NCBI RefSeq assembly: GCF_022788635.1
Contig: NZ_CP076024.1
Location: 3,541,503-3,573,502 of the forward strand
DNA from: Methylobacter sp. S3L5C
Lineage (GTDB): Bacteria > Pseudomonadota > Gammaproteobacteria > Methylococcales > Methylomonadaceae
Direction: 5' to 3'
Length of the DNA stretch: 32,000 nt
The notes beneath the pieces are model-generated. The model was not told where the DNA came from. It ran no database searches and saw nothing but the letters and a program-made list of their open reading frames with translations. This document shows, one piece after another, positions 3,986 to 19,988 of the stretch. The position numbers were made by a program, and so were the translations under genes. The first letter of the stretch is position 1. Each line of letters opens with the position of its first letter.

Positions 3986-5560
3986 TTAGTGGTTTGTTGG
4001 CATGCAGTTAAACAAGCTATCCAACGCTTTATCGCTTTCGGTATTAACCGTTATTACATTAATTTGTTCTTCAGCGGACAGAACTTCTGCCCATTGCAGT
4101 TGATGGAGTAATACATCAGTCGTCGCTTCTGAGGCATCATTTTGTCGTTGTTTTATACGCCGACATAACGCTTCTGTAGATGCCTTAAAATCAACAATAA
4201 TAAATCGTACGCCACATTCTGCGGCAAGATTTTTAAATAAGTCGCGCTGATCAGCTTTAAGAAAAGCTGCATCAACAATGGCAGAGAAACCTGCTTTAAT
4301 GACATTTTTTGCACAACCGGCAAGATGCAGATAAGTTTTATGTCCGGCCTCCCGGGTATAAAGCCCGCTATCAAGATCACTCCCGGTATCTGACTGTGCC
4401 TGATAGCCAAATAAGCGTTTACGTTCTATATCTGAACGTATTTGCAAAGCCCCCATTTTTTCGGCAAGCTGACCGGCATAAGTAGATTTACCGGAGCCTG
4501 AATAGCCATGAGTAATGATTAAAACCACCGGCTTTACCGTAGTAAATCGCTCGGCCAGAGTAACAAACTCAAGGTATTTTAAACAAGGCTGATTACAGAC
4601 AGGATCATTTAATTGCTGGGCATTGCGCAACAATGAAACTTTGGCGCACACCAGCGCACGGTAAACCAGATAGTATCGCAATAAAGCCAGTCCCTGATAA
4701 TCACCGGAATGTTGCAGATAATGGTTGAGTAATCGGTAAGCGTAACACTCATAGCCAACGTGCAGTAGATCAATCACCAGAAAAGCGAGCTCACTGATGA
4801 CATCAATCCAGCGTAGCAGCGGATTAAACTCGATACAATCAAACAGCGTTACCTTGCCGTTGATAAGCGTCATGTTACTTAAATGCAAATCACCGTGACA
4901 TTCGCGGATATAGCCTTGCCCCCTGCGTAGCTCCATTAATTCGGCTTTATCATGCCATTCATCATTACCCCAAGTCTCGATAACCTGGAGTTGCTGTTTT
5001 TGTTTTTCATCGACCAGCAAGGGCCTTATATGATCAAAATTCTCGTTAAACCAATGTTTGATACCTTCACTTTGACCATAGGGAGAGGCAATATCAGCTT
5101 TTTCGATAACATCATGAAAATCAGCAACAATACCGGTAATTTGATCGATTTCATTTACAGTTAATTGCCCACTTTCGGCAAGCTCACTTAAGGTAAATCC
5201 TGCGGGAAATTGAAGCATCTTAACGGCGTATTCAATAACCGCCCCTCTTCCTTCCATGGTTGGCTGATCGGGACTACCGGTTATTGCAACCACATCAAGA
5301 TATAAATCGGGCGCCAATCGCCGGTTAAGGCGTATTTCTTCATGACAAAAAAACCGGCGTTTCTCTAACGTAGAAAAATCCAGAAAGCCAAAGTTAACCG
5401 GTTTCTTGATTTTATAGGCATATTTCCCGGTTAACAGCACCCAGGAAATATGTGTTTCAACCAGATTAAAAGCTGTTATTTTATGCTGATATGCACTGGC
5501 CTCAGACAAAGCCTTAATCAAGGCAATACTACTATCCAGTCGGGTTTTATTGTTATCCAT
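3986..5560 (-). CDS. Two-domain protein: N-terminal aminoglycoside-phosphotransferase-like (APH/ePK-fold) kinase domain plus C-terminal P-loop kinase (AAA_33-like) domain
   Basis: Kinase catalytic-loop pattern HGDLHLSNM followed by LFDCIEF. C-terminal Walker A in ITHGYSGSGKSTYAG. 524-aa ORF starting 12 nt downstream of the preceding gene's stop. Confidence 0.8.
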   Translation of the reverse strand: MDNNKTRLDSSIALIKALSEASAYQHKITAFNLVETHISWVLLTGKYAYKIKKPVNFGFLDFSTLEKRRFFCHEEIRLNRRLAPDLYLDVVAITGSPDQPTMEGRGAVIEYAVKMLQFPAGFTLSELAESGQLTVNEIDQITGIVADFHDVIEKADIASPYGQSEGIKHWFNENFDHIRPLLVDEKQKQQLQVIETWGNDEWHDKAELMELRRGQGYIRECHGDLHLSNMTLINGKVTLFDCIEFNPLLRWIDVISELAFLVIDLLHVGYECYAYRLLNHYLQHSGDYQGLALLRYYLVYRALVCAKVSLLRNAQQLNDPVCNQPCLKYLEFVTLAERFTTVKPVVLIITHGYSGSGKSTYAGQLAEKMGALQIRSDIERKRLFGYQAQSDTGSDLDSGLYTREAGHKTYLHLAGCAKNVIKAGFSAIVDAAFLKADQRDLFKNLAAECGVRFIIVDFKASTEALCRRIKQRQNDASEATTDVLLHQLQWAEVLSAEEQINVITVNTESDKALDSLFNCMPTNH

Positions 5561-5572
5561 ATTAGCGTCAAA

Positions 5573-6136
5573 CTATTGAAAATACTCAGTCAGATCATCA
5601 TTAATAGCGTCAAGATCAAACTCTTCGGGATCAAACTCCCCGCCTAACCATTCCAGCGTATCTTCATACTCAGCATGTTTGGGATCTAAAACTATTGCAA
5701 TAAGCTCTTCATACCCCCAGATACCACCACAATCTTCTGGTGGACAGGCACGCTTACCTTTAAGGCAAACAGGCAAGGCAATTTCAGTATCAAAAGGCAG
5801 TATTTTTTCGAGCAGTATTTTGTGTTCCCAGCTATCCCCAAAATCATATTCATAAATCAGGGAATCCTTTTCCTTTGTTAACAATTGCGCCAACGTGTAT
5901 TGTGTCTCGTCTTCCGTTTCCAGATCATAATCTCCATCGGGGACACTATAAAATGTTTTATTGGCAATAAATTGGTGTAAATGACTGTTGGTCCAGCCCA
6001 TTACAACCTGAATGACATCATGAAAGGCAGATAAACCTATATCACTGGCAACTAAAACAGTACGCCAAATGGGCGGTTTGGCACCCATCAATGAAATTTT
6101 TATTTGATAAATAACCCTTGATTGCTTCGTTGCCAT
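5573..6136 (-). CDS. pRiA4b ORF-3 / MM3350-like domain protein (function unknown)
   Basis: The N-terminus IYQIKISLMGAKPPIWRTVLV...FHDVIQVVMGWTNSHLHQF...YEYDFGDSWEH is the characteristic pattern of the PRiA4_ORF3 family. It is followed by a Cys-containing segment (CLKGKRACPPEDCGG). Confidence 0.7.
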   Translation of the reverse strand: MATKQSRVIYQIKISLMGAKPPIWRTVLVASDIGLSAFHDVIQVVMGWTNSHLHQFIANKTFYSVPDGDYDLETEDETQYTLAQLLTKEKDSLIYEYDFGDSWEHKILLEKILPFDTEIALPVCLKGKRACPPEDCGGIWGYEELIAIVLDPKHAEYEDTLEWLGGEFDPEEFDLDAINDDLTEYFQ

Positions 6137-6454: not shown

Positions 6455-8203
6455 CTAAAAGGTCAGTTCGTCTGTTAATTTTTTCTTTAAAAGTTCCACA
6501 CGTTCTTCAACAAAATCTGGAAAATCTTTAAGATCAAGCTTCTTTGGTAAATAATGCTTTTTCATTGATGGATTAGCTTCTAAAACCCAAACATTTAAGT
6601 CTTTTGCACCTTTAGATTTATTTTCATTCTCATCAAGCATTTGTAAATTAATAACTGAATTAAAGTAGCTTGGATCTGTATAGTATTCTCTATTATTATC
6701 GTCTAAAGTTACTCCTTTTGATTTTAGCTTCTTCTTATCAAAATGCGATAATGGATGACAATGGTCAAGATTAAAGTCTCTATTCTTATAATCGAGGTGT
6801 GGAAATAATAATGCTAATACCGCGAAAGCATATCTATTATCTTTACTTGTAAATAACAAGCTTTCAACAAACTCTTCATCAACCGAGATACTTTTATTAG
6901 TTTTGGAAAGCCTTAATGCTATTTGTTTAGCAGGAAAAATATCAATCCCTTTTACTAATTCTTTTTTAATAGTATCCCTGATTGTTTTTAAAACTCCCTC
7001 TGCTTGCCCACCAAATATTTGATGTAATAAAACAACATGCAACCATCTCTTAATTATTGCTCTATCATTTTTATATGCTGTTTTTTTACAAAAATTATTC
7101 ACTCTCCCATTTTTATAAAGATAATAAACAATTGGAAGCACAGAATTCAACGAAGTTAGTGTCTTAGTTGTATATCCAAAGTCCGTTACTAACTGAAAAG
7201 ATTCTTTAATTGCACTTTTAATTTCATTCCAGTTAGTTTCAAATTCTTTTGCATTTTTTACACTAAAGTTATCAACTCGAAACTTAATATCATCATTGTA
7301 TAAAACCAAATATGTTCTCAAAATAAAATCTTTGTTAACCAAAAATCCAAATTCTTTGATTAGTTCATCAACAAGCCCATTAATTTCTTTCTTAGCATCT
7401 AAATTCATCCAACCTGAAATCGTTGTTGACATAACTAAATCAGAGTAACTTAGTGTTACGCCTCCTGAATTAATGCGTATAAAAATATTTAATGCTCTCG
7501 TGTAATCTGCGCTCTGCTCAAGATAGTAATGTATTAATTTTTCGATATGTACCATATCATGAAGTCTGCTTAAAATTTCTAGCGACTCACCATTTTCTAT
7601 ATTATTTTTTTTACAATAACTATTTAGTTGAGATAGCCCTCTGATATCTAATATTTCGCTAATCTTAAACCATTTTTTATTACTATTAACTTCGGCAGCT
7701 TCCTTTGGCTTAAGAAAAGAAAAATCATATTTTTTTTCATCGTCACTATCATCTAAATTATTTTTTTCATTTTTCTTGTAAAATAAATTTAAATAAAGGT
7801 ATCTTGTTTGCACTGAGTATTCATTGTCATTCCAAGCAAGGTTATATCCGTGGTAGGCATATGAACCTTTTAATCCTAAGTATAATGCCGTAAGTCTTTG
7901 CTGCCCATCAAGAATAACTTCAAAGCTTGGAATACCTATTGTTGATATCTCTTCTGAACGTATTAAGTACCGCTCTCTATATTTTCTTAATATTCCATAA
8001 AATCTTTGATTTTGAGTATTTCTCCCATCAACACTCCAAAGAAGCATTGAGCCAATTGGATAACCCTGCATTAAAGAATCAAAGAGTTTTTCAATTTTAC
8101 TATGCGTCCAAACAAAATCTCTTTGTATGGCAGGGAGTAAATATTGGTTGTAATCGATTTTTTGTAAAGCATCTGCAACAGACAGTGGAGGGAAAAATGA
8201 CAT
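6455..8203 (-). CDS. DUF262 + DUF1524 (GmrSD/BrxU-like) putative type IV restriction endonuclease
   Basis: N-terminal DUF262 motifs LPAIQRDFVW...LFDSLMQGYPIGSMLLW and ILDGQQRLTALYLG. C-terminal His-Me finger-like DUF1524 pattern NLDHCHPLSHF...VINLQMLDENENKSKG. The gene is very AT-rich (spot count 17/60 G+C at 7681-7740). Confidence 0.8.
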   Translation of the reverse strand: MSFFPPLSVADALQKIDYNQYLLPAIQRDFVWTHSKIEKLFDSLMQGYPIGSMLLWSVDGRNTQNQRFYGILRKYRERYLIRSEEISTIGIPSFEVILDGQQRLTALYLGLKGSYAYHGYNLAWNDNEYSVQTRYLYLNLFYKKNEKNNLDDSDDEKKYDFSFLKPKEAAEVNSNKKWFKISEILDIRGLSQLNSYCKKNNIENGESLEILSRLHDMVHIEKLIHYYLEQSADYTRALNIFIRINSGGVTLSYSDLVMSTTISGWMNLDAKKEINGLVDELIKEFGFLVNKDFILRTYLVLYNDDIKFRVDNFSVKNAKEFETNWNEIKSAIKESFQLVTDFGYTTKTLTSLNSVLPIVYYLYKNGRVNNFCKKTAYKNDRAIIKRWLHVVLLHQIFGGQAEGVLKTIRDTIKKELVKGIDIFPAKQIALRLSKTNKSISVDEEFVESLLFTSKDNRYAFAVLALLFPHLDYKNRDFNLDHCHPLSHFDKKKLKSKGVTLDDNNREYYTDPSYFNSVINLQMLDENENKSKGAKDLNVWVLEANPSMKKHYLPKKLDLKDFPDFVEERVELLKKKLTDELTF

Positions 8204-8311: not shown

Positions 8312-8650
8312 CTACCGACATTCCGTACCTTTGCACATTACGATTAGGGTAGTAAGCCGCTGCTGGCCATCTATGATATTTAGACGGAGGTCTTTCTCTC
8401 TGTCTTGTTGGTGCAGGATAATGCTACCCAGATAAAACGGATGAGAAGCTGGCTGCAAACCTGTTGCTGGTTTAAAGTATCTGCGCAGATCATCCAGCAA
8501 GCATTGAAGCTGAGATGCCCTCCAACGATAGGGGCGCTGATATTCTGGCAGGTGGAGAGAGCCCTGAATCTGCGCGCCATCACTGGCTATAATACTCGGT
8601 TCACCAGCAAACAACTCGGCCAGCGAACAGCTGGCAACAATAATACTCAT
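8312..8650 (-). pseudogene. Truncated DUF262 gene remnant (N-terminal 112 codons only)
   Basis: Encodes LPEYQRPYRWRASQLQCLLDDL...FYLGSIILHQ...IIDGQQRLTTL and stops a few codons later. Intact DUF262 proteins continue for several hundred residues. It has an SD-like AAGGA upstream of its ATG and lies 69 nt after the hsdM stop. Confidence 0.6.
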
Positions 8651-8719: not shown

Positions 8720-10177
8720 TTATGGTTTAAGTCCAACCGCTAGATCCCGGAAGGAGGCAAGCGCAGCTTCAAGGTGCTCAATGATTTCCTGCTGTAAAAC
8801 ATACGGAGGCGGCAGATCATCAAGATTGTCGAGAGTGTCATCCTTGTGCCAAAAAATATCCAGACTGGCTTTATCACGGGTTATTAATTCGCTATAGGTG
8901 AAGTATTTGAATCGTTCGGCTTCCTTACGCTCATGCCGATTTTCAGGGTTGTAGCAGGTTATAAAATCCCGCAAATCATCGAGCTTCAGGGTTTTTGTTT
9001 TCAGCGTGAAATGCTTGTTAGTGCGCAGGTCATATATCCACACACCTTTAGTATGCACCTTACCGTCTTTTGGTTTAGCGTCGAAAAACAGCACATTCGC
9101 CTTCACGCCTTGGGCATAAAATATGCCGGTGGGTAAACGCAGCAAGGTGTGTACGTCGCAGTTCTCCAGCAATTTTTTGCGAATTTTCTCGCCCGCTCCG
9201 CCTTCAAATAACACATTGTCCGGCAATACAACGGCGGCTTGGCCTGTGTCTTTGAGGATGGTGACGATGTGCTGCAGAAAGTTAAGCTGTTTGTTGGATG
9301 TGGTTTCCCAAAAATCCTGCCGCTCGTAAGTTAACGCGTCTTTGTCTTCCTCGCCTTCCTCATTGGTAATGGTCATGCTGCTCTTCTTACCGAATGGAGG
9401 ATTCGCTAACACGTAATCGAAACGTTTACCCGGATCACCAATCAACGCATCGGCACGCTCCACGGAAGGCTCGCCATCGAGTTCGCCGATATTATGCAAA
9501 AACAAATTCATCAAACACATGCGCCGAGTGTTGGGCACGATTTCATTGCCTTGGAAAGTGTTATGCCGCAGAAACTCTTTTTGTTTTTTATCCAGCGTGT
9601 TGCCAGAGCGGGTTAACCAATTGTAAGCACCCAGAAAAAACCCGCCGGTACCGCAGGCAGGATCTGCAATTGATTTCATCGGTTCGGGACGCACGCATTC
9701 CACCATCGCCTGAATCAGTGCGCGCGGCGTAAAGTATTGGCCCGCACCGCTCTTGGTATCCTCGGCATTCTTTTGCAGCAAACCTTCGTACAAATCGCCC
9801 TTGGTATCGGCATCCATACCCACCCAGCTTTCAGCATCAATCATCTGCACCAGTCGAGATAACTTGGCCGGGTCTTGAATCTTGTTTTGCGCCTTGAAGA
9901 AGATTGCGCCCAACATACCCGGCCCAGTGCCTAGCTTGTGTAGTGTCGCTAGATAATGCGCTTCCAGCGGTTCACCCACCTTACTGCGTAAACTGGCCCA
10001 GTCATAACCTTCTGGAATATGGGTATCGCGGTTGTACGGTTCTTGCGCGTACTCATGCGCCATCTTCAAAAACAGTAAATAAGTAAGTTGCTCCAGATAG
10101 TCGCCATAGCCCACGCCGTCGTCGCGAAGAGTGTGACAAAAGTTCCAGACTTTCTGAATCAGGGTGCTTGTATTCAT
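8720..10177 (-). CDS. hsdM: Type I restriction-modification system DNA methyltransferase subunit M
   Basis: HsdM N-terminal pattern (IQKVWNFCHTLRDDGVGYGDYLEQLTYLLFLKM), AdoMet motif I ADPACGTGGF and catalytic motif IV NPPFG. The likely start is the ATG at 10175-10177, which overlaps the upstream TGA (ATGA). The ORF-track start at 10195 is a TTG extension. Confidence 0.93.
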   Translation of the reverse strand: MNTSTLIQKVWNFCHTLRDDGVGYGDYLEQLTYLLFLKMAHEYAQEPYNRDTHIPEGYDWASLRSKVGEPLEAHYLATLHKLGTGPGMLGAIFFKAQNKIQDPAKLSRLVQMIDAESWVGMDADTKGDLYEGLLQKNAEDTKSGAGQYFTPRALIQAMVECVRPEPMKSIADPACGTGGFFLGAYNWLTRSGNTLDKKQKEFLRHNTFQGNEIVPNTRRMCLMNLFLHNIGELDGEPSVERADALIGDPGKRFDYVLANPPFGKKSSMTITNEEGEEDKDALTYERQDFWETTSNKQLNFLQHIVTILKDTGQAAVVLPDNVLFEGGAGEKIRKKLLENCDVHTLLRLPTGIFYAQGVKANVLFFDAKPKDGKVHTKGVWIYDLRTNKHFTLKTKTLKLDDLRDFITCYNPENRHERKEAERFKYFTYSELITRDKASLDIFWHKDDTLDNLDDLPPPYVLQQEIIEHLEAALASFRDLAVGLKP

Positions 10178-10962
10178 AGAAGTTCCTCTACCCAAGCTTT
10201 ATCACGATGTGAGCCAATGGCTGACCTGAAAAAGCTTGAATATTCGTGATCGAGAGATAGATGTTCTTGCAAGTGCGTGATGATGACGGGCTGATTACCT
10301 ACAAGGCGAATCAGGTCGTCCAACAAGCGCCAATCGTTTTTTTTGCTTTCAGGTATGTTCCATTCGTTAAAACCAAGCCGCTCAATCGTGTAGTACGCAC
10401 GCTGGTATTCCCAAGTGCCAACAGGTGCAGCGAGCTTGATCTCACCATCTATAGTGTGTGCCAACAAAGCGCAATCGGCCTCAACACATGGATCAAGCAA
10501 CCTGGGGATTTCAGCGGTAATTGGGCTCGCGGGGGCGTTGCAACGGCTGGTCTCGTTCTGGAGAGGAAATTCGTTGGCCTTGCCGTGCAATGTTGTAAGT
10601 TCGTCTTTCTCTGGCCGATTGCACCGTTGGCACGAAAGGCGGAAGTTCGACCACTCATACGCCAGCCAGAAGTAACCGTTATGCCCGACCAGCTTGACGC
10701 CATCCACCGTAATGCCGAGCTTAGGTCGGAAATGGTCTACATCAAAAACCGCACGGTTACTCTTCGCCTCGCAGTACCAACACTTATGTCCACTGGCGTT
10801 CGATAGCCACTTCTTGAGCAGCCCCCAACTGCCATTCTTCTTCAGATATTTTGACCGCTCTTCTTGCGTGACGAGTGCATTGACGACAGCAACCCTTGCT
10901 GGGTAAACCTTAATCCATCGCGCTGGCAGATTTGGTGGTAAAGGAATAATGACGAATCTCAC
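10174..10962 (-). CDS. TIGR02646-type HNH endonuclease, PtuB-like (Septu-like nuclease partner)
   Basis: CWYCE-x10-DHFRPK and WSNFRLSCQRCNRPEK form a His-Me/HNH pattern. The GTG start overlaps the ATPase stop (GTGA) and the stop overlaps the hsdM ATG (ATGA). Confidence 0.8.
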   Translation of the reverse strand: MRFVIIPLPPNLPARWIKVYPARVAVVNALVTQEERSKYLKKNGSWGLLKKWLSNASGHKCWYCEAKSNRAVFDVDHFRPKLGITVDGVKLVGHNGYFWLAYEWSNFRLSCQRCNRPEKDELTTLHGKANEFPLQNETSRCNAPASPITAEIPRLLDPCVEADCALLAHTIDGEIKLAAPVGTWEYQRAYYTIERLGFNEWNIPESKKNDWRLLDDLIRLVGNQPVIITHLQEHLSLDHEYSSFFRSAIGSHRDKAWVEELL

Positions 10963-12665
10963 CTACGATCCCCCTGCAAGCTGCTCAGCAGACTTTGCAC
11001 TAAGGCATCTAAGGCCTTTTGCTTGTTTTCAGGCGTGACGATTGCACCGCCGATTTCGCCATCAGCCGCGAGATCGAATCTCGCCCGCAAATATTCCTGC
11101 TCCAGACGATCTCGTGAACCGAAATTGAAATCCAAGCCTTCCAGGCGCTGGCGAACTGCAACCAGCTCTTCTCGGTCGGTATCGCTCAATGTCGCTTGCG
11201 TGGAAAGCTGGTGCAATGAGAGCAGGTCAGTATTGGTGGCCTTGTCCAAGCTGGAGCCAAGACCAAACATATCGCTGGTAATGATACCAGCAAAGCCCAT
11301 GCCCTTGGGGTCCATGGCAGGGTTTTCCGAATGCACTGTTCGAGCGCCGGAGTCTCGGTATAGGATTTGGACTTGCTCTTTGACAAGCTCAGCAATCGCC
11401 AAGGGATTGTGAGTCGTCAGAACAATATGGCTATTGTCCTCACCTTCGTTGTTTTGCCCCACAAAGGACTTCAAGTAGCTCAGGTAGTCAACGCACCAAC
11501 GCGGATTCAAATGCGTATCCGGCTCATCCAGCAAAAACAGGCTTTCATCCTCGGCGGTGAAGCGCAGCAAGCCCAACACTGTCAATAACTGTTGCTCGCC
11601 TTCGCTGAGCTCACGGAACGTCACACTGCCGTCGTTTTTCTTGAGACGCACGCGGATGCGCACTTCTTCAATCAGCTCGGAGACATAGGTGCTCTCCAAA
11701 TCTCGGAAGAACTGCGCCGGAGCCTGATTGCCCACCAAACGCCGTAACGCGGCAATGTCTTTCACGTATAGATATTTGAACTGCAGGGTTTTCTTGTTCC
11801 AGATCGATGTCGACACGCGGCGACTGATGTCAACCGGAGCCAAAGCAATGTCATAAAGGCGGGACAGGAAGTCGCGTACTACGCCCCGTGCATTCCAGAA
11901 ACGCGGGTCGCCATCGGCAGCCTTTGATTTCCAGGGTGGTTGGCGCAGTACGAACAGCACCGATTCAATGCCTTCGTCCGGATCAAGACCCAAATGATCA
12001 TCCAGGAAAGCCCGCACCATGTCCGACTGCTGGAATAAGAAGGCAAGCAGCACGAATTGACTGTGCACAGGCATTGCGTAAAACAGACGCTTTAGGCCGG
12101 GGTCTTCGCCATTGCGTAGCTTGCTATCGTATTTCTCCAAGTAAGGACGGAATATGTCGCGCATGCGTGTGCTTTCGCCTGAGTAGTAGCCGAAAACGTA
12201 GCGAGGCAGATACTTGCAATCGTCTTTTAAGAAATCAAGGAGATGGATGCGAGCTTTGTTTAATTTTTTCTTAACTTCAGAGTTAGCTTCAAACAAATAA
12301 CCCAATGTTTCGTGTTGCTTAGTGTTTTTGATTTGCTCTATATCTTGTGCGTTGCCCACATAAAACTGAATGGGATCCGCTTTGCGATCCGGGTCAGAGC
12401 TAATGTAAACATGAAATAGGCTCTCACCCGTGCCTATGCGATAACTGAGCTCAAAGGCAAACGCTGGCATGCGCTTCATGGTAATTAAATCACGGAAGAT
12501 GATGGCCAACGCCTCCAGCACGTTGGATTTGCCCGTGCCGTTCCATCCGATGACCACAGTCACCCAGTGATCCTGATCGAAGTCGATGGTGACGTTTTTC
12601 AGGTTCTTGAACTGGTGCGTCGGGCTATCTTTGGCGCTGCCAATGGTAAGTTTATCCAGGCGCAT
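10959..12665 (-). CDS. ABC/SMC-like AAA ATPase, PtuA-like (restriction-system-associated ATPase)
   Basis: Walker A GWNGTGKSNVLEAL, signature-like LSEGEQQLL, Walker B LFLLDEPDTHLNPRW, H-loop LTTHNP, with a long insertion between Walker A and the signature motif. The start ATG is 2 nt after the hsdS stop. Confidence 0.8.
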   Translation of the reverse strand: MRLDKLTIGSAKDSPTHQFKNLKNVTIDFDQDHWVTVVIGWNGTGKSNVLEALAIIFRDLITMKRMPAFAFELSYRIGTGESLFHVYISSDPDRKADPIQFYVGNAQDIEQIKNTKQHETLGYLFEANSEVKKKLNKARIHLLDFLKDDCKYLPRYVFGYYSGESTRMRDIFRPYLEKYDSKLRNGEDPGLKRLFYAMPVHSQFVLLAFLFQQSDMVRAFLDDHLGLDPDEGIESVLFVLRQPPWKSKAADGDPRFWNARGVVRDFLSRLYDIALAPVDISRRVSTSIWNKKTLQFKYLYVKDIAALRRLVGNQAPAQFFRDLESTYVSELIEEVRIRVRLKKNDGSVTFRELSEGEQQLLTVLGLLRFTAEDESLFLLDEPDTHLNPRWCVDYLSYLKSFVGQNNEGEDNSHIVLTTHNPLAIAELVKEQVQILYRDSGARTVHSENPAMDPKGMGFAGIITSDMFGLGSSLDKATNTDLLSLHQLSTQATLSDTDREELVAVRQRLEGLDFNFGSRDRLEQEYLRARFDLAADGEIGGAIVTPENKQKALDALVQSLLSSLQGDRR

Positions 12666-12667
12666 GG

Positions 12668-14368
12668 TCAGGTCGCCAACAGCTTCAGCCGATCGTGCAG
12701 TTTACGGCCTTGGGTGTCCGTAACCGCCTCTACCGCCAAACGACCCGCTTTATCCAGCATGCGCAGTTCGGCGTACAGCGCTTCAATTTGCTCGGTCTGA
12801 GCACCATCGGCCACACCGCAGCGACGAAATGCTTCTTGGGCTGTCACCCAATCGCCCGCCTCGCCGAGCACGTCAATTAATTTGCTCACCACGGCGGCGA
12901 TCTCCTTTTGTTGTTTGGTTTTACGCACCTTCGGCTGCTTTTCGCGCTCAGCCCTTTCTGCACGAATACGCTCCAGCAACACGCTGGCTGGTTCTTCGTT
13001 GGGGGCTTGCGGCACCAACTGGCCGGAAAAAGCGGCTTTGAGGATGTTTTTGCGTTGGACGGCAGATTGTTTGAGGGAAAGCTCTACCGCATTCTCTTGG
13101 CGATTAAGGTTTTCAATCTGCAATTCGAGTTGACTCAATAGCTCTCTTTGTTCTGATGCAGGGCCTAAGGGAACAGGAAACATCCGCAACATAGTCATGT
13201 TAATTGATGCCAAGTTGGTCGTTTGCTTGCCTGCGTTTTGGAACCACAATTTGCCGAAAGTATTGCCATGATGCGAGATCAGCTCTGGCAATACCTCTGG
13301 CAAATACAGGCGCATGCGGAATACGTGGTTTTGGTGAATGCAATTGGCAACTTCATCACTCCACACCCAGCCACGTCCAAGCTTGTCTCGATCACCACCT
13401 TCGTTAAACAGCACATCACCGGCTTGTAATGTTAATTCCGCAATGTCGCGCTCAGTGGCCAAAATGGTCTTTATTTCGGAAAGATCGAGAAAGCCGCGCT
13501 GCACGTTGGCCACCCGTAAATACGGTACTTCGCGAACCTGGACATCAGGGTTGCGTTTTGTTCCTTTAGCAACGCCTGATGCAATTTCACCTAGCATATC
13601 CAAGCTCGTCCAAACCCACCCCTCCGGCAATTCCGACAAATCGCTAGTATCAGGGTTGGCCGGCTCGGGGTATTTGCTTTGCCAGCCTTTAGGCGGAGCT
13701 TTACCTTGTTCTTTAAATTTTGCTAATTGCTTGGCTTCCCAGAAGATTCGGCGCTCGGTGAGGATGCGTTCCAGCAATACAGTGCCGGTTTCTTCAGGTT
13801 GGTTTGTTGTACGCCACTCGGAAGTCAGCTCACCTTCCACTGCTGCTTTCAGCAGCGATTGCCGATACTGCACCAACTTCTTCTGTGCGGCCTTGAGTTC
13901 GCCCACCCCGGCGTCGAGATCGGACAGCATTTCTTCGAGTTTTTCGACGATGCGAGTTTGCTCAGCCGCAGGCGGCAAGGCCAGAAATTCTTTGCGTAAG
14001 TGCTGGTAATGGCGACCATACCCACGATTCTCAAGATCAATAGTTCCGAGCTGTAGATACGCAAACATCGGGTCCCAAAGCGCAGTCGGGGCAAATAGCT
14101 TGACTCCATCCGCTCCAACAGCAAACGGAAATTTCACGAACTTGAAACGGCGGGTGTGGTCACCAAAAACGATCACCGGAACTGGTGAATTAACTTTCGC
14201 ATTCAAGTCATTGGTATATCCACCGATCAGACCTTCACCTTGATCAACTACAGGTAGTTCGCCTGCTGGTAAATAGTCTTTCTGTTTAATGCGAAATCCA
14301 CGATCCGAGATGAGTTCAACGGCTTCATCAAAGCCAATCTGCAACCAAGAACTAGGTAAACCCCTCAC
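12668..14368 (-). CDS. hsdS: Type I restriction-modification specificity subunit S, with an extra C-terminal tail
   Basis: Two target-recognition regions, each followed by a conserved coiled-coil spacer (LPPAAEQTRIVEKLEEMLSDLDAGV...; PLGPASEQRELLSQLELQIENLNRQ...) and a repeated LLERI-x-ER motif. The GTG start overlaps the hsdR stop (GTGA). Confidence 0.9.
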   Translation of the reverse strand: MRGLPSSWLQIGFDEAVELISDRGFRIKQKDYLPAGELPVVDQGEGLIGGYTNDLNAKVNSPVPVIVFGDHTRRFKFVKFPFAVGADGVKLFAPTALWDPMFAYLQLGTIDLENRGYGRHYQHLRKEFLALPPAAEQTRIVEKLEEMLSDLDAGVGELKAAQKKLVQYRQSLLKAAVEGELTSEWRTTNQPEETGTVLLERILTERRIFWEAKQLAKFKEQGKAPPKGWQSKYPEPANPDTSDLSELPEGWVWTSLDMLGEIASGVAKGTKRNPDVQVREVPYLRVANVQRGFLDLSEIKTILATERDIAELTLQAGDVLFNEGGDRDKLGRGWVWSDEVANCIHQNHVFRMRLYLPEVLPELISHHGNTFGKLWFQNAGKQTTNLASINMTMLRMFPVPLGPASEQRELLSQLELQIENLNRQENAVELSLKQSAVQRKNILKAAFSGQLVPQAPNEEPASVLLERIRAERAEREKQPKVRKTKQQKEIAAVVSKLIDVLGEAGDWVTAQEAFRRCGVADGAQTEQIEALYAELRMLDKAGRLAVEAVTDTQGRKLHDRLKLLAT

Positions 14369-17145
14369 GCCACCAACTCCTCATTCATCTCTGTCATCAA
14401 TTCATCCAGTTGTTTGCCAAACACCGTCCAAACCTTCTGCAACCCGCCTTTATCCGCAAACTCGGCATAGTCGAAATCATCACGACTGATACTGCAACTA
14501 CTGGCTATGTGGTCTTTGATCATCCGTAGCCATTCGGTTTGTTCGGCACTAAATGCCGTGGTGCGCCGGGCATTGTGGCGGAAGATCCATTCTTGAAAGC
14601 GTTTATCGACCTGTTCGCTAAAGGGTTTGAGTTCGGTATCTAGGCCGATGGCAAAGCGCAGCAGTGCGATCAGGTCGGTCAATTGGCGCTTACTGTTTGC
14701 ACCTTTCACTTGGCTGGTTTGCACTCGGGCATAGGCGCTCCACAGCCGTTCGGTGGTCAGCATCAGCGGCGGGCGGCTTAAGGCATCGTGCAATTCATCG
14801 ATCATTTCAAAGGTTAGCGTGCGGCGTTGGTAAGGTTGTTGGTAAAAGAAACTTAAGGCTTCGATTTCTTGCTTGTGCTGGTTGATGTAATCGGTGAAGG
14901 TCTGAATAATTTTTTGTGCCTGCGCTTCGGCTTGCTCGCTGTAGCCGGAAAAGGTGACTTGATCGAGATTAAGGTGGTCGATCAATTGTTCACGTTCGCG
15001 GCGAGCGGATTCGATTTGCTCGCGCAGTTCGGGTTTATCAAACGGCTCGCAGGCTGCGGCAACGCGCTGGGCACGGGCGGCGCTGATTTCATCTTCGGTA
15101 AGCGAGTCATCGCTACGGGTAATGCCTTGGGCTTTTGCTGTCGACAGAGCGGCTTCGATGATTTTGTCGGGGTCAATTGCGGTAATCAGCCGCTTGGCAA
15201 GTTCGCTGACGGGAATGCCGCCGGACACTTTTTCGATGCGGGCCTGAGCTTTGTCGTCCAATTGTTTGGATAAACGCAGCAAACGATTGGCAAGACTTAA
15301 TACGGTGTCGTCGTCGCGGTGGCCGATGGCGATGCCTTGCAGTAAATCTTTAAGGGCGACACCGGGTTTTTTCTCCAGCGGGCGGGATTCGGTTTTAAGC
15401 GACTTCTCCACGCCAACGGCATCAATCAGCACGAAGCGGGTTTTGGCGCTATCGGCGCTATTGCTGACACGTTTTAAGTCGTCAAAGCCCAAGCTGCGGA
15501 CGCCGCGACCTTTCATTTGTTCATAGTAGCCTTTGCTGCGCACATCGCGCATGAACAGCAGCACTTCCAGCGGTTTAACGTCGGTACCGGTCGCGATCAT
15601 GTCAACGGTGACGGCAATGCGCGGATTGTAGTCGTTGCGGAAGCTGCTGAGAATGCTGTCCGGGTCTTCTTCGGCTTTATAAGTGACCTTTTTACAGAAG
15701 GCGTTACCCTGACCGTAAACTTCGCGCAAGATATTGATAATGTCGTCAGCATGGCTGTCGGTCTTGGCAAAGATCAGTGTTTTTGGAGTTTCCTTGCGGC
15801 TGGGGAAAATTTGGTTTTCCACCGCTGTTTTCATGGCCTGGATCACTTGCCGAATCTGGCTAATGTTGACGACGGAGCGGTCCAACTCTTTGCCGGTGTA
15901 GAGCGCGTCTTCTTCGGTTTCAGCCCATCGTTTTTTGCGCGTTTGACGGTCGCGGTGATCAACCCATTCTTTGGCTTTAAGTATCGAACCTTTTTGGGTA
16001 ATTTCAGTTTCAATCTCGAAGACATCGTAACCCACGTTAACACCGTCGGCCACAGATTGCTCATAGGTGTATTCGGCAACAATGTTTTCGTTAAAGAAGC
16101 CGAAGGTGCGTTTGTCCGGCGTGGCTGTCAGGCCAATAAGGTAGGCATCGAAGTAGTCAAGCACCTGCTTCCACAGGTTGTAGATGGAGCGATGACACTC
16201 GTCGATGATAATGAAGTCAAAGGTTTCGACTGGAATGACTGATGTATAACGCACTAGCTTGGCTTGTTTCGAAGTTTGCTGAAGCTCGTTAAGCGAGACA
16301 TCTTCAGCTGAATCGTCAATGGGTTCACCAGACAATATCGAATACATACGCTGGATGGTGGAAATGCAAACCTGCGAATGGGGATCAATGGTCGAAGATG
16401 CCAGACGCTGCACATTATAGAGCTCGGTAAATTTTCGTCCGTCGTCAGGCGGCGAGTAGGCCATGAATTCCTGATGCGCTTGCTTGCCGAGGTTACGAGT
16501 ATCAACCAGGAACAATACACGTTTGGCTCCGCCGAACTTTAGCAAGCGATAGACCGAGGTAATGGCGGTAAAGGTTTTGCCTGCGCCGGTGGCCATGTGT
16601 ACGAGGGCGCGGGGCTTGTTTTGTGCAAGAGATTTTTCCAGTCCGGTAACAGCACTGACCTGACAGTCGCGCAGGTTGCGCTCGGGTAACACAGGCATCT
16701 GCTCGGCCAGTCGGCGGCGCAGAGTTTCTGGCTGAGCCAACCATAAGCTCAGTTGTTCCGGCTTAAAGAAGTGGAACAACTCGCGTGAGCGGGGTATGGG
16801 GTCGCGGCCATTGGTAAAACGGATGATCTGGCCGGTACTTTCGAACAGAAAAGGCAGCGGAGTGGTTTGCACTCGCCACTTCAGGGTAGCGTTGGCGTAA
16901 CGCTCGGTCTGTCTTTCTGTCACGGTAAGGTTCTCACCAGCTTCATCACGCTTGGCTTCGATCACTCCCACGGCTTCTCGATTGACGAACAGCACGTAGT
17001 CCGCCGGTCCAGTGTCAGTGGGATATTCACGCACCGCAACGCCTTGGCCTGCACCCAAGTTGATTTGCTTCATATCCTGAATTGTCCAGCCCGCCCGTTC
17101 GAGTTTCTGGTCGATCAGTTGCCGTGCTTTGACTTCCGGGGGCAT
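14365..17145 (-). CDS. hsdR: Type I restriction enzyme R subunit (EcoEI/EcoAI-like, helicase-nuclease)
   Basis: N-terminal nuclease region (ARQLIDQKLERAGW...), helicase motif I MATGAGKTFTA, motif II IIIDECHRS, and a long C-terminal helical domain. An ATG at 17145 preceded by AAGGA is favoured; the ORF-track GTG at 17172 is the alternative start. Confidence 0.92.
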   Translation of the reverse strand: MPPEVKARQLIDQKLERAGWTIQDMKQINLGAGQGVAVREYPTDTGPADYVLFVNREAVGVIEAKRDEAGENLTVTERQTERYANATLKWRVQTTPLPFLFESTGQIIRFTNGRDPIPRSRELFHFFKPEQLSLWLAQPETLRRRLAEQMPVLPERNLRDCQVSAVTGLEKSLAQNKPRALVHMATGAGKTFTAITSVYRLLKFGGAKRVLFLVDTRNLGKQAHQEFMAYSPPDDGRKFTELYNVQRLASSTIDPHSQVCISTIQRMYSILSGEPIDDSAEDVSLNELQQTSKQAKLVRYTSVIPVETFDFIIIDECHRSIYNLWKQVLDYFDAYLIGLTATPDKRTFGFFNENIVAEYTYEQSVADGVNVGYDVFEIETEITQKGSILKAKEWVDHRDRQTRKKRWAETEEDALYTGKELDRSVVNISQIRQVIQAMKTAVENQIFPSRKETPKTLIFAKTDSHADDIINILREVYGQGNAFCKKVTYKAEEDPDSILSSFRNDYNPRIAVTVDMIATGTDVKPLEVLLFMRDVRSKGYYEQMKGRGVRSLGFDDLKRVSNSADSAKTRFVLIDAVGVEKSLKTESRPLEKKPGVALKDLLQGIAIGHRDDDTVLSLANRLLRLSKQLDDKAQARIEKVSGGIPVSELAKRLITAIDPDKIIEAALSTAKAQGITRSDDSLTEDEISAARAQRVAAACEPFDKPELREQIESARREREQLIDHLNLDQVTFSGYSEQAEAQAQKIIQTFTDYINQHKQEIEALSFFYQQPYQRRTLTFEMIDELHDALSRPPLMLTTERLWSAYARVQTSQVKGANSKRQLTDLIALLRFAIGLDTELKPFSEQVDKRFQEWIFRHNARRTTAFSAEQTEWLRMIKDHIASSCSISRDDFDYAEFADKGGLQKVWTVFGKQLDELMTEMNEELVA

Positions 17146-17560
17146 GCTGGTTTGTCCTTGCTCAATTTCCACTTATTTAATTTATTCCGCTTGTCTTGAG
17201 CAAAAAACACAACTTTTATTATTAATGCAAAACGAGTCAAATGCATCAAAACTTAGCTCATTATTTGATGCTCATCTGGGAGATAAGCCGCTTTTTTATC
17301 CATATTAAGCTAGTAGGCTATAACGAACGACATCTAAATTTCCATAGTAAAACAACATTATACTGGTTTTCTGTGGTCAATTGATATTAAATGAACATCG
17401 TCCAAGTATGTTCCATTTCTGTTTGGAAAATTCATTGCCATTGCTAGTCTGCCAGTTGATGATGAGTTTTCGTAGGATATACGATGAAGTATTACGGAAC
17501 TGTTTTAGCGAGCTGTTGTGTCAGTAGATTCGTTCTATTTCTATTTTTGTGACCATATAT

Positions 17561-17998
17561 TTATTCTGTTCTTTCTCGATCAATCCTTGGCAAAGGTTCA
17601 TTCAATTGATTCTCCTTCATGCCATATTTGTAAGCATTGTATTGCCAAATCACAAATTGTTCTAATAATGCCGAGTTTTTCTGCTTGAGGCTTTCTATTT
17701 CGCTTTGCTGCCTTGCAATTCGATCACCAGCCATAGTTAAACTACTAGGCTTGGGTGTAACAACCCCCTGTACTTTAAGAGTTGCTTTCCTGGAACTATA
17801 AGCCTCTTTTATCAGCTTATTGGCATTGAGAGATTGCCGAGTCGGGTTTTTACCTATAATGGGCTCAGATGCTTCGCAAATACTCTCCCAAGTCAGCTTT
17901 TCGTCCTTCCAGGCATAGATAATACTGATAATTGCTTCTACATCAGTCTGTGTTAAATGCTTAGCCAAGTCCACCTCCCAAAAGTTTCGCCATATCAT
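17561..17998 (-). CDS. Hypothetical small protein trailing the recombinase trio (positional analogue of Tn554 TnpC)
   Basis: 145-aa ORF overlapping the 3' end of the upstream recombinase gene, with a coiled-coil-like segment (RQQSEIESLKQKNSALLEQF). The start is ambiguous: a TTG at 17968 preceded by GGGAGG is an alternative. No family recognised. Confidence 0.5.
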   Translation of the reverse strand: MIWRNFWEVDLAKHLTQTDVEAIISIIYAWKDEKLTWESICEASEPIIGKNPTRQSLNANKLIKEAYSSRKATLKVQGVVTPKPSSLTMAGDRIARQQSEIESLKQKNSALLEQFVIWQYNAYKYGMKENQLNEPLPRIDRERTE

Positions 17999-19988
17999 CT
18001 AAAAGATTGGTATCGTCAGAATTTTTTAACGCAATTATTGCTTGCTTTGACTCAATGGCACGACGTAGTGGACTAAACGATTTATCATTACGTAATTTAA
18101 TTTGCGCACCGTCATCTACATCTGGATGCTCTAGTATGGAAACCAGTTCTAGCAAACGCTCAAAGGTATTTTTATGATATTCGTACCAACGATCTGCTCC
18201 TGACAGCCCTTCCTTTAACGCATTTTCTGCCGCCTGAAACAGCTGCTCAACTTTATTTAGTCGCGCTTTGATCCGTATAAGTTTTTCATTCTCGCCCTTT
18301 ATGCAGACTTGCTCATGGCAATTTAGACAATCCCTGTATTTTTCACAAGGAGTCATGGTGAAATCATGGACGCATACACCAAACTCCGTAACATGAACGG
18401 CACCTTTTTCCATGGTGTTGAATTCCTGAATGGTAATTGGCAGGAACTTGTCAATTTCACCCGATGGCCCGAACAGCGTCAGCGATGTGTCCAGCGCCTC
18501 AGCTTTGGCTACCATCTCGTACTCGCTCATGTGATTATAGGTACGGTTCTGCTTTTGATCCGCACGCCCCGACCATTTGGCAATTTCTAGCTGCGACAAG
18601 CCACCACGTTGGGCAAAAGTATTGAGCAAATGACGCGCTTGATGTGAGTTCAGCTTGATTTGCTTTCCATCAGCGGCAAGATAGCCGTGTCTATCGAAAA
18701 TACTCTGATGTGTACTACTTTTTAGGCTTTCTCTGGGAGACAAGTCATTGTTAACAACATTATGAGTAGGAGCCCAAAGAATTACTGGACTAACTCCACG
18801 GCCTGTGCCGATTAAATTTCTTCGCATACAGAATAAAGCATTGCTATACTTAATTTTTCTCTCCCGATTTATCCAAGGAAATCCTTCCGGTTGCCTTGAA
18901 AGTACATATTTCCAAAGACTCTTGAGAGTATGCACACCATCTTTCTGTTCCAATCCAAAATTGTTTAATGACGTACGACACTCCTTTGATGTGCCATTGG
19001 CTTGACCTAACGCTTGGCAAGCCTCCTTCATCGTAAGTGGATAATCATCGTCCAACTTTGGGCAGCACTCATGCCGATAAAATTTATCAGGATTTGTCTC
19101 AATCCACTTAGCAAGCTTTCTCGATTCCTCAGTTAATTTCATTAGCCGCTTGATCGCTTCTTTGGCAATACCTACCATTTCCGTTGGAATCCATTTTATA
19201 TCGCCACCAAATCCCTTTCCTGCGTAAAAACGCCACCCGTAGCGCGACACGCCCTTAGAATCAAACTCTTCCACCTCACAGTCAACGGGCAGTTCCAGCA
19301 CCTCTGTAATGCGGGATGGGGCGCACATTAGCATTGCGAACGCACAAGAAGTAAAAATATCTTTTGGTTCTGTTGAATCGGCGGCAAAGATTTCTGCCAT
19401 CGCTATTAGCGCTTCTTCAGAGGGTAACTTTTTTTCTCGCCGGGCTTTGGCTTTTTGTCCTGTTTGAGTTATATCGGTTTTACGTGCTATAGGATTTCTC
19501 CACCCGCCTAGATCCGCTGCAATCAGCTTTTTTGAAGTAACAAACTTAGCGAGTCGTTCCAACTCTCTGCCCCCATGATAATCAGCACCACTTAAGTAGC
19601 AGGCTCTCATGAGCTGCGATGCATTATCTAAAATGGGTATGGAAAGATTGTGAATGCTTGCAAGGACGCTACTTTGAAGCAATGCGGCTTCAATCGTCCG
19701 AAGTGCTTTCAGCTCGTTTTTAGCACCAGTTGGCTTATGTCCTTGTTGATACCGGAAGTAGGCTTTTGCAAAATCAATAAAATCATCATCCAATTTGTCG
19801 GCTTCATCTTTAGTGCGTGAATTAGCACCAGACTTGGTAAAGTTTCCAGCTTTAGGCCACCTCCAAGCATCCCAATCCAGATCATTACCAAAAACCGTTA
19901 GATCAGTTTCGCATTTGCTGATGAATTCCAGCAAATTACGTTCGGCATCAATTTCCGATTTCGGTTTAAAATGAAATAGTTCAGCCAT
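17961..19988 (-). CDS. Large tyrosine recombinase/integrase (third of trio, Tn554 TnpB-like size)
   Basis: Catalytic-domain landmarks CAPSRITEVLEL (Arg I), SHQARHLLNT (HxxRH) and DQKQNRTYNHM (Tyr), plus a Cys-rich stretch CVHDFTMTPCEKYRDCLNCHEQVC. The ATG overlaps the preceding gene by 8 nt. Confidence 0.85.
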   Translation of the reverse strand: MAELFHFKPKSEIDAERNLLEFISKCETDLTVFGNDLDWDAWRWPKAGNFTKSGANSRTKDEADKLDDDFIDFAKAYFRYQQGHKPTGAKNELKALRTIEAALLQSSVLASIHNLSIPILDNASQLMRACYLSGADYHGGRELERLAKFVTSKKLIAADLGGWRNPIARKTDITQTGQKAKARREKKLPSEEALIAMAEIFAADSTEPKDIFTSCAFAMLMCAPSRITEVLELPVDCEVEEFDSKGVSRYGWRFYAGKGFGGDIKWIPTEMVGIAKEAIKRLMKLTEESRKLAKWIETNPDKFYRHECCPKLDDDYPLTMKEACQALGQANGTSKECRTSLNNFGLEQKDGVHTLKSLWKYVLSRQPEGFPWINRERKIKYSNALFCMRRNLIGTGRGVSPVILWAPTHNVVNNDLSPRESLKSSTHQSIFDRHGYLAADGKQIKLNSHQARHLLNTFAQRGGLSQLEIAKWSGRADQKQNRTYNHMSEYEMVAKAEALDTSLTLFGPSGEIDKFLPITIQEFNTMEKGAVHVTEFGVCVHDFTMTPCEKYRDCLNCHEQVCIKGENEKLIRIKARLNKVEQLFQAAENALKEGLSGADRWYEYHKNTFERLLELVSILEHPDVDDGAQIKLRNDKSFSPLRRAIESKQAIIALKNSDDTNLLDDMAKLLGGGLG

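Follow-up and report, generated by a model that had tools for sequence, protein, structure and literature searches.

A remote Septu branch encoded next to hsdS in type I restriction-modification loci and its putative adaptor domain on HsdS

Introduction

Between hsdS and hsdM of a type I restriction-modification (R-M) operon of Methylobacter sp. S3L5C lie two genes, ptuA and ptuB, which encode an ATPase and an HNH nuclease and are the subject of this study. The DNA analysed, called the window below, is a chromosomal stretch of 32,000 nucleotides (NCBI RefSeq assembly GCF_022788635.1, contig NZ_CP076024.1, positions 3,541,503 to 3,573,502), to which all coordinates refer unless another locus is named. 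The clade to which the pair belongs is tied to hsdS, and its PtuA probably docks on an additional C-terminal domain that HsdS proteins carry together with this cargo.

The closest described systems are Septu, the retrons that use the same effector pair, PrrC and other defence genes embedded in R-M loci. Septu type I is said to be the stand-alone PtuA/PtuB pair reported by Doron in 2018, and 8EEA reportedly represents its structure. Stand-alone PtuAB as well as PtuAB displaced from its retron nick DNA in vitro (PMC12819146), and Septu EcB88 and retron-Eco7 cleave tRNA-Tyr in vivo (PMC13096335). Retron Ec78 sequesters PtuAB through elements added to PtuA, namely an N-terminal extension and a helical flap, by which the platform contacts this protein (PMC12819146). 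PrrC, encoded in a type IC locus, is silenced by the R-M proteins and unmasked by the anti-restriction peptide Stp (PMC12707154; Payne et al. preprint). Payne et al. (2021, 2024) found that Septu is a frequent cargo of Hma and that type I R-M is a frequent host of embedded systems; 0.7% of Septu systems were located in Hma, and the embedded systems were treated as autonomous cargo. For communication between nested defence systems and their hosts, PrrC in EcoprrI is essentially the sole worked example.

Results

Position of the ptuA-ptuB pair in the operon

The pair is the third and fourth member of a single block of five open reading frames (ORFs) transcribed from the minus strand in the order hsdR, hsdS, ptuA, ptuB, hsdM:

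14365..17172, minus strand: hsdR, type I restriction subunit of 935 amino acids (aa), with Pfam matches ResIII (1.2e-36), Helicase_C, HSDR_N and EcoEI_R_C (1.2e-42)
12668..14368, minus strand: hsdS, 566 aa, matching PADLOC Specificity_I PDLC03127 (1.2e-124) and Pfam Methylase_S
10959..12665, minus strand: ptuA, ABC/SMC-type ATPase of 568 aa
10174..10962, minus strand: ptuB, HNH nuclease of 262 aa
8720..10177, minus strand: hsdM, N6-adenine methyltransferase of 485 aa counted from ATG, with N6_Mtase (6.7e-69) and HsdM_N

The original prediction, made from the sequence alone, held that the pair is fused into the hsd operon and shares the composition of the hsd genes, and both points stood. As read from the sequence, hsdR and hsdS overlap by GTGA, hsdS and ptuA are separated by 2 nt (TGA-CC-ATG), ptuA and ptuB overlap by GTGA, and ptuB and hsdM by ATGA, while the GC fraction is 0.49-0.535 over the block (8.5-17 kb) versus 0.28-0.45 in the flanks. 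The true start of hsdM is the ATG at 10177; the listing of the ORF tool had a TTG at 10195. The operon contains a complete type I set, that is, the HsdR helicase-nuclease (which matches NCBIfam PRK11448 with 1.8e-116, under the cutoff of this model), HsdM with motif I (DPACGTGGF, 9638-9664) and motif IV (NPPF, 9392-9403), and HsdS, in which the conservation profile of 72 homologues delimits two target recognition domains (TRDs), two conserved regions (CR1 and CR2) and a C-terminal extension. Scanning the operon for promoters and terminators revealed no internal signal of note: promoter-like sites numbered 7 versus 8.5 expected from shuffles, and terminator-like sites 20 versus 11.8.

Assignment of the pair to the Septu superfamily

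PtuA matched the PADLOC profile PDLC00302 (PtuA) with an E-value of 5.9e-266, and PtuB matched PDLC00343 (PtuB) with 1.6e-57. The Pfam matches of PtuA were AAA_21 (2e-23), AAA_15 (3.3e-14) and SMC_N. Each motif that had been quoted for the two ORFs was found at the listed residues, and the PtuA elements are located as follows:

12525-12548, minus strand: Walker A of PtuA, GWNGTGKS, residues 40-47
11589-11609, minus strand: signature of PtuA, LSEGEQQ, residues 353-359
11517-11540, minus strand: Walker B of PtuA, LFLLDEPD, residues 376-383
11403-11420, minus strand: H-loop of PtuA, LTTHNP, residues 416-421
11376-12665, minus strand: ATPase module of PtuA, residues 1-430
10962-11348, minus strand: C-terminal module of PtuA, residues 440-568

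In PtuB, CWYCE (61-65) is followed after 10 residues by DHFRPK (76-81) and then by CQRCNRPEK (111-119). The catalytic columns of PtuA were invariant in 27 diverse homologues, and so were C61, E65, H77, N106, C111 and N115 of PtuB in 40. When the PDB was searched with profiles of the clade, the top matches of PtuA were 9n69, the PtuA chain 8ee4 (8.8e-17) and PtuA of retrons Ec83 and Ec78, and all matches of PtuB were PtuB chains, including those of retron Ec78 (1.8e-7) and Septu (8ee7_C, 1.4e-3). Single-sequence searches of the PDB gave a weak match for PtuA (E 5e-7) and none for PtuB. Considering the PADLOC calls, the clade-profile matches and the invariant catalytic residues, the pair is placed in a remote but genuine branch of the Septu (PtuA/PtuB) superfamily, in agreement with the family named by the original prediction.

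The profiles expected at the outset were recovered in part: PADLOC PtuA and PtuB, AAA_21 and AAA_15 matched, but TIGR02646 reached only 35.3 bits versus a cutoff of 52.15 with PtuB, for which Pfam HNH was below its cutoff as well (18.5 versus 21.4). The curated NCBIfam models all remained under their cutoffs, with 148.9 versus 300 bits for TIGR04435 (PtuA), and the retron equivalogs were far below them (NF041760, PtuA, 47.7 versus 500; NF041761, PtuB, 29.1 versus 150). The five ORFs of the operon, which are all accounted for, include no reverse transcriptase (RT), and neither the Pfam hits nor the PADLOC matches shown included a PrrC or RloC model. The exact matches at NCBI are WP_243217796.1 and WP_243217795.1, which the annotation pipelines name 'ATP-binding protein' and 'hypothetical protein', respectively, and defence finders would report the locus as two independent systems.

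Linkage of the clade to hsdS

Homologous loci were collected with PtuA as the seed (85 loci, 35-83% PtuA identity) and annotated with hidden Markov models (HMMs) derived from the proteins of the window. Of these loci, 80 (40-83% identity), the best among no fewer than 546 relatives in genomes, came from a scan in which each species was represented by one genome; their phyla include Proteobacteria, Bacteroidota, Cyanobacteria, Chloroflexota, Acidobacteriota, Planctomycetota and Nitrospirota. Many loci originated from metagenome-assembled genomes, and the gene calls were longest-ORF calls. Megablast of the operon against E. coli genomes gave zero matches; a distant-mode search matched 4 of these genomes, which were taken as additional examples.

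The gene directly upstream of ptuA was hsdS in 78 of the 80 loci having upstream DNA, and all but two of the hsdS-ptuA gaps fell between -71 and +22 nt, mostly between -4 and +10. Downstream, ptuB followed ptuA directly in 83 of 84 loci. The full-length homologues on plasmids (35-45% identity) were likewise located directly after hsdS in all five cases. Two gene orders were nearly equal in number, hsdS-ptuA-ptuB-hsdM (S-A-B-M), the order of the window, in 38 loci and hsdM-hsdS-ptuA-ptuB (M-S-A-B) in 37. The lack of enrichment beside hsd genes that would have told against the original prediction was not seen. Linkage to hsdS characterises the clade as a whole and is no chance insertion. A single ancestral insertion followed by co-inheritance was also considered and rejected, since the block described below, formed by the HsdS tail and PtuA, is found in both gene orders and on backbones whose HsdM proteins are 37-57% identical. 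The claim that this is not a free-standing Septu was upheld: the pair fails as an autonomous two-gene Septu given hsdS upstream in nearly every locus, the Septu-specific tail of HsdS and the natural HsdS-PtuA fusions.

More distant ATPase/HNH pairs on plasmids of Bacillus cereus and Rhizobium etli had no hsd neighbours. These free-standing Septu-like ATPases of 744-767 aa (L175, 3423-5657, B. cereus pRML01; L176, 3453-5756, R. etli pRetMIM1e) match the PtuB HNH profile with their N-terminal region (E 1e-23 and 3e-18) and are accompanied by a separate PtuB gene besides. In two M-S-A-B loci without adjacent hsdR (L040, 12574-16263; L042, 12736-16500), ptuB is directly followed by a gene for an SF1 helicase of 1229-1254 aa (AAA_30, AAA_19, UvrD_C_2), which may be an extra component.

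A C-terminal winged-helix tail on HsdS that accompanies Septu cargo

To the PtuA-seeded sample a second one was added by scanning metagenome contigs with the window HsdM, which yielded 80 loci (HsdM 84-96% identical), 67 of them assessable. PtuB adjoined hsdM in only 10 of the 67, and the other 57 had the structure R-S-[other cargo]-M, the cargo including SLFN/AlbA_2-HATPase_c_4 proteins, SoFic, HEC-01 (ATPase+DUF4276) and PDC-S02 (DUF1016/YhcG) and mostly starting at the hsdS stop or a few nt from it. Thus, cargo in general is accommodated in the interval between hsdS and hsdM, which agrees with the account of type I R-M by Payne et al. Nearly every HsdM-seeded locus (L093-L172) held cargo in this interval; the SLFN/AlbA_2+HATPase_c_4 proteins were the largest group, and their 656-aa form had no PADLOC match.

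The relevant parts of the C-terminus of the window HsdS are:

12953..13024, minus strand: motif GQLVPQ.P.(D/E)EPASVLLERIRAER of HsdS, residues 449-472
12671..12892, minus strand: Septu-specific winged-helix tail of HsdS, residues 493-566, the proposed PtuA-docking adaptor

All 72 full-length HsdS proteins encoded upstream of PtuA were at least 506 aa long and had a common conserved C-terminal extension. An HMM of the tail (HsdS 493-566) had matches in 79 of 85 loci from the PtuA-seeded sample. Its matches in the HsdM-seeded sample were confined to the 9 loci that bear Septu and have hsdS complete, and none fell in the 57 loci with other cargo. The region of the GQLVPQ motif was 62-68% identical across different R-M backbones, and the number of residues following PQDPNDEPA within it separated the two kinds of HsdS: 23-36 in 47 proteins with non-Septu cargo (HsdM 84-96% identical) versus 104-108 in the 9 Septu-bearing loci of the same set. 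Among the PtuA-seeded HsdS bearing the motif, 35 of 36 had 98-116 residues after it and the remaining one 57.

The AlphaFold2 (AF2) model of the tail has the order helix-helix-helix-beta-hairpin with a predicted local distance difference test score (pLDDT) of 82-87. Foldseek returned winged-helix domains only, with weak and generic matches (E of 0.011 or higher); one of them, 5h66_C, the C-terminal winged helix of ScpA bound to the SMC head (TMt 0.76), is a lead and no evidence. Since the modelled winged helix is acidic on average (mean net charge -3.3), the tail may contact protein rather than DNA.

Tblastn of the tail against plasmids gave zero matches, and a protein search with the tail alone found only short fragments of 71-218 aa; whether HsdS proteins with the tail occur without PtuA was answered by the HsdM-seeded scan combined with the tail HMM. 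About 25 protein clusters (P0322-P0346) are ORFs of 73-75 aa that consist of this tail alone. In some contigs a 74-aa tail ORF separates hsdS from ptuA, and one of these contexts has the arrangement hsdS(497 aa)-74 aa-ptuA-ptuB-hsdM with a 16-nt overlap in another frame; this separate tail ORF could be a real split gene or the product of a frameshift. In another locus (L095, 3552-7948) the same slot contains a different PtuA-like ATPase (537 aa) with a PDC-M62B/PDC-M01B-like HNH partner, and HsdS has its own, unrelated C-terminal extension of 99 residues, which suggests that such extensions may be a general feature of ATPase+HNH cargo.

Covariation of the tail with PtuA and module boundaries

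Pairwise identities of 69 loci (2346 pairs) were compared between the segments of the operon, and three blocks emerged:

Block 1: HsdM, HsdS CR1 and HsdS CR2, Spearman rho about 0.6
Block 2: HsdS tail and PtuA residues 1-430, Spearman rho 0.83-0.89
Block 3: PtuA residues 440-568 and PtuB, Spearman rho 0.64

The partial correlation of the tail with the PtuA ATPase was 0.82 given CR2, and rho of the tail with CR2 was 0.11. PtuA 440-568 covaried with PtuB (Pearson 0.97 for identities relative to the window) and not with the ATPase domain of its own chain. In the Septu structure PtuB is held by the C-terminal domains of PtuA (PMC12065111), and block 3, by reproducing this contact, serves as a positive control. 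In 40 pairs of loci with PtuA at least 70% and HsdM at most 60% identical, the tails were 56-68% identical and the adjacent HsdS cores 24-41%. The covariation and these 40 pairs together indicate that the tail belongs to the Septu module, which has been joined to various type I backbones.

The C-terminal module of PtuA and PtuB exist in two sharply different versions among L001-L085 (about 60-90% versus 20-40% identity to the window). The ATPase domains joined to them have 54-79% identity, which points to cassette exchange inside ptuA.

Natural HsdS-PtuA fusions

Among the best 150 representatives clustered at 50% identity, 9 were proteins of 786-1179 aa with an N-terminal Methylase_S part and a C-terminal PtuA ATPase. 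Identity among their PtuA parts was 46-80% and did not exceed 44% with any unfused representative, so the fusions form one old monophyletic clade. A search seeded with one fusion detected ten more full-length members from NCBI, JGI, ENA and Logan, and the members include an isolate genome, Brevundimonas sp. NPDC092305. Sequencing or gene-calling artefacts were rejected as their origin because a single clade diverged to 46%, found in several sources and in an isolate genome, is involved. In the fusions the HsdS core and PtuA are still separated by a helical domain, whose likeness to the tail can be recognised only in P0143, and their loci have the order [HsdS-PtuA]-PtuB-HsdM. Four HsdR-domain proteins (P0423-P0426; ResIII, EcoEI_R_C; 619-695 aa) match 14% of the fusion P0190 with 47% identity and may represent an HsdR-HsdS read-through or a shared segment.

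Genomic surroundings of the operon

The operon is located in an island of about 20 kb with purL on one side and housekeeping genes on the other, which additionally holds a recombinase trio and GmrSD-type genes. Three successive large ORFs of 675, 513 and 417 aa at the island edge (17961-22765, minus strand), of which only the 417-aa one had a Phage_integrase match, resemble such a trio and may mobilise the island of about 3-23.5 kb between purL and the ABC-F/SelO/glk genes. Directly downstream of hsdM there is a truncated GmrSD_N/DUF262 fragment of 112 aa (8312-8650, minus strand; HEC-06/SspE-like), and next to it an intact HEC-05 gene of 582 aa (6455-8203, minus strand; BrxU-like GmrSD, PADLOC E 2.4e-192) lies in a stretch of 29% GC; it looks like a later insertion that cut the older DUF262 gene. 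The same island encodes a protein of 524 aa whose C-terminal domain is an AAA_33/Zeta-toxin-like kinase (3986-5560, minus strand) and, as its neighbour, a PRiA4_ORF3 family protein (5573-6136, minus strand).

Discussion

Proposed mechanism and its alternatives

The analysis shows to which family the pair belongs, the invariant hsdS-ptuA-ptuB order, the specificity of the tail, the boundaries of the modules and the fusions. We propose that the Septu effector is docked on HsdM2-HsdS. Docking would occur via the winged-helix domain of about 72 residues at the C-terminus of HsdS, past a flexible basic linker, and this domain belongs evolutionarily to Septu and not to HsdS; a contact between the HsdS tail and PtuA is probable in our judgement. 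As the five genes form one tightly coupled operon, PtuA would meet the nascent HsdS tail, and the C-terminal module of PtuA would hold PtuB as in the solved Septu. The M-S core would act as sensor and regulator and PtuAB as the effector, which would be silent during the normal M2S state. A phage perturbing M2S, for instance with DNA-mimic or other anti-restriction proteins, would cause PtuAB to fire and to cut nucleic acid, either by nicking DNA or by cleaving tRNA, activities known from characterised Septu and retron-Eco7, as a second line behind HsdR. Such a guard-type trigger is suggested by analogy only, with PrrC and retron Ec78. Taken as a whole, trigger included, the proposal is tentative and has slightly less than an even chance of being correct.

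Several observations weigh against it. As the single-sequence PDB results indicate, no Septu studied by experiment is close to the clade, and consequently neither the substrate nor the trigger can be transferred with confidence. Physical linkage of the genes confounds the covariation, although the tail is as near to CR2 as to ptuA. The AF2 model of a natural fusion of 1121 aa had well-folded domains and a low-confidence or disordered linker (predicted template modelling score 0.47), and was neutral on docking, and the long flexible linker suits tethering better than allosteric masking. Moreover, 34 of 66 assessable loci, including whole subclades and the fusion clade, were without adjacent hsdR, an R-less locus being one with no hsdR in the 3.5-10 kb of flank seen and at least 3.5 kb of upstream DNA required; an hsdR of more than 600 aa adjoined in 32. 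The R-less loci (26 M-S-A-B and 8 S-A-B-M) group into subclades, the large ORFs flanking them are housekeeping genes such as gyrB, infB and dnaE, and two of three fusion-clade loci are three-gene units without hsdR. Examples of R-less loci are the M-S-A-B locus of E. coli MB06233 (NZ_CM129883.1, 3569302-3575001) and the [HsdS-PtuA]-PtuB-HsdM locus of Brevundimonas sp. NPDC092305. No R-less locus has lost motif I or IV of HsdM, and TRD swapping continues between close relatives in R-less lineages, as in L060 and L064, whose PtuA proteins are 85% identical and whose TRDs are 19-20% identical. Hence hsdR is dispensable for the association of Septu with hsdS, and its frequent absence, together with the intact HsdM motifs and the TRD swapping, makes a guard of restriction hard to square with the data. 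The coupling to the type I complex that the original prediction had suggested was retained as far as HsdS is concerned, but the partner appears to be the HsdM-HsdS core and not the full R-M enzyme, as roughly one locus in two, and two of the three fusion loci, have no hsdR beside them.

Given how often hsdR is absent, a role independent of HsdR is no less plausible than a restriction guard. PtuAB may accordingly be an HsdR-independent restriction module, in which HsdM2-HsdS reads methylation and recruits or licenses PtuAB via the tail on unmodified foreign DNA. On this view an M-S-A-B locus would need nothing else to work as an R-M system, and the two nucleases of the window would be served by a single sequence reader. 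The R-less loci with their housekeeping flanks, their grouping into old subclades, the three-gene fusion loci, the maintained HsdM motifs and the TRD swaps all favour this, and so do the nicking of DNA by PtuAB in vitro (PMC12819146) and a flexible tether, which suits recruitment. However, hsdR may lie elsewhere in the genome, beyond the flank seen, and part of its loss is decay, to judge from the hsdR remnants at some R-less loci (L019; E. coli ECO2947). A PtuAB that reads methylation would be without precedent, characterised Septu acts on tRNA-Tyr in vivo, and it is hard to see how a tail on a flexible linker would relay the methylation state. We consider this explanation possible but doubtful. 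Somewhat unlikely, too, is the broader notion that HsdM-HsdS-PtuA-PtuB constitutes a distinct class of R-M, where the type I methyltransferase core reads sequence and methylation, a Septu pair that is tethered, or in one clade covalently fused, replaces or doubles HsdR, the winged-helix tail couples the parts, and analogues exist in TIGR04435 and PDC-M62-like systems.

An autonomous Septu that merely occupies the cargo slot, its association with hsdS reflecting co-transfer and co-regulation only, is improbable. It would agree with the other cargo found in the same slot in 57 of 67 loci with near-identical HsdM, with the commonness of embedding in type I R-M, where 96.7% of embedded genes are co-oriented (Payne et al. 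preprint), and with the more distant Septu-like pairs that stand alone, as canonical Septu is described to do (PMC12819146). It does not account for hsdS upstream in 78 of 80 loci, in two orders and on backbones with only 37-57% HsdM identity, nor for an extra HsdS domain that is limited to Septu cargo and covaries with PtuA, nor for HsdS-PtuA fusions that persist over deep divergence. That PtuAB serves the R-M system itself, by post-segregational killing upon loss of M-S or by control of restriction or methylation, is very improbable, for despite the tight stoichiometric coupling to M-S, the retention of PtuAB with M-S when R is lost and the mobile island with its recombinase trio, every characterised relative is an anti-phage effector, the slot otherwise holds defence cargo, and no evidence specific to such a role was found.

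Novelty and significance

Payne et al. (2024 preprint) have already published both the nesting of defence genes within type I loci and the general idea of a PrrC-style relation, and in TIGR04435 NCBIfam has a sister family of ATPases that bears the label 'restriction system-associated'. Provisionally, the literature searched, an incomplete selection, contained no description of the clade-wide hsdS linkage, the winged-helix tail of HsdS, the three-block structure or the HsdS-PtuA fusion clade, and searches on TIGR04435 and TIGR02646 gave nothing relevant; within the same limits no paper describing the coupling was found, in keeping with the earlier statement that it is uncharacterised for this family. 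Next to PrrC, the locus is a second and much more widespread case of a nested system, and it offers a handle in the small cargo-specific HsdS domain and the natural HsdS-PtuA fusions, which make the coupling directly testable. If the proposal is true, the view established for retron Ec78, in which PtuAB is an effector that can be carried over to various sensors, would be extended, and an R-M variant derived from type I that functions in the absence of HsdR could come to light.

Comparison with known systems

Like Septu type I, the window encodes an ABC-type ATPase followed by an overlapping gene for a TIGR02646-like HNH protein, both matching the PADLOC PtuA/PtuB profiles, and the C-terminal module of its PtuA covaries with PtuB, as expected from the solved contact (PMC12065111). 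Unlike Septu type I, its clade is tied to hsdS, has a putative adaptor domain fused to HsdS and is very remote in sequence.

With retron Ec78/retron-Eco7 (Septu type II, retron type I-A) it shares the effector pair, which here too has probably been co-opted by a separate sensor platform. This platform would be HsdM-HsdS, however, and not RT with msDNA, the operon having no RT gene, and the added element is on the partner, as the HsdS tail, whereas in Ec78 it is on PtuA.

The resemblance to PrrC (EcoprrI, type IC) lies in a nuclease driven by an ABC ATPase and encoded within a type I locus. PrrC is a single polypeptide with an ABC ATPase and an anticodon nuclease domain, whereas here two proteins with an HNH nuclease are present, and hsdR is often absent beside the Septu clade. 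We know of no HsdS adaptor or HsdS fusion for PrrC.

As in the embedded systems of Payne et al., a defence cassette is nested and co-oriented inside a methylase-containing system; the domain on the host protein that acts as a putative adaptor, the fusion and the clade-wide obligate linkage are not described in those accounts.

The sister family TIGR04435 ('restriction system-associated AAA family ATPase') differs in that the window PtuA and ten members of its clade score 96-159 bits versus the cutoff of 300, and in that the HsdS extensions linked to it have no match to the tail HMM. Nevertheless, for both TIGR04435 members that were examined the gene begins at the stop codon of hsdS and has, as in the window, an HNH-like partner behind it, and the HsdS encoded before it carries a C-terminal extension.

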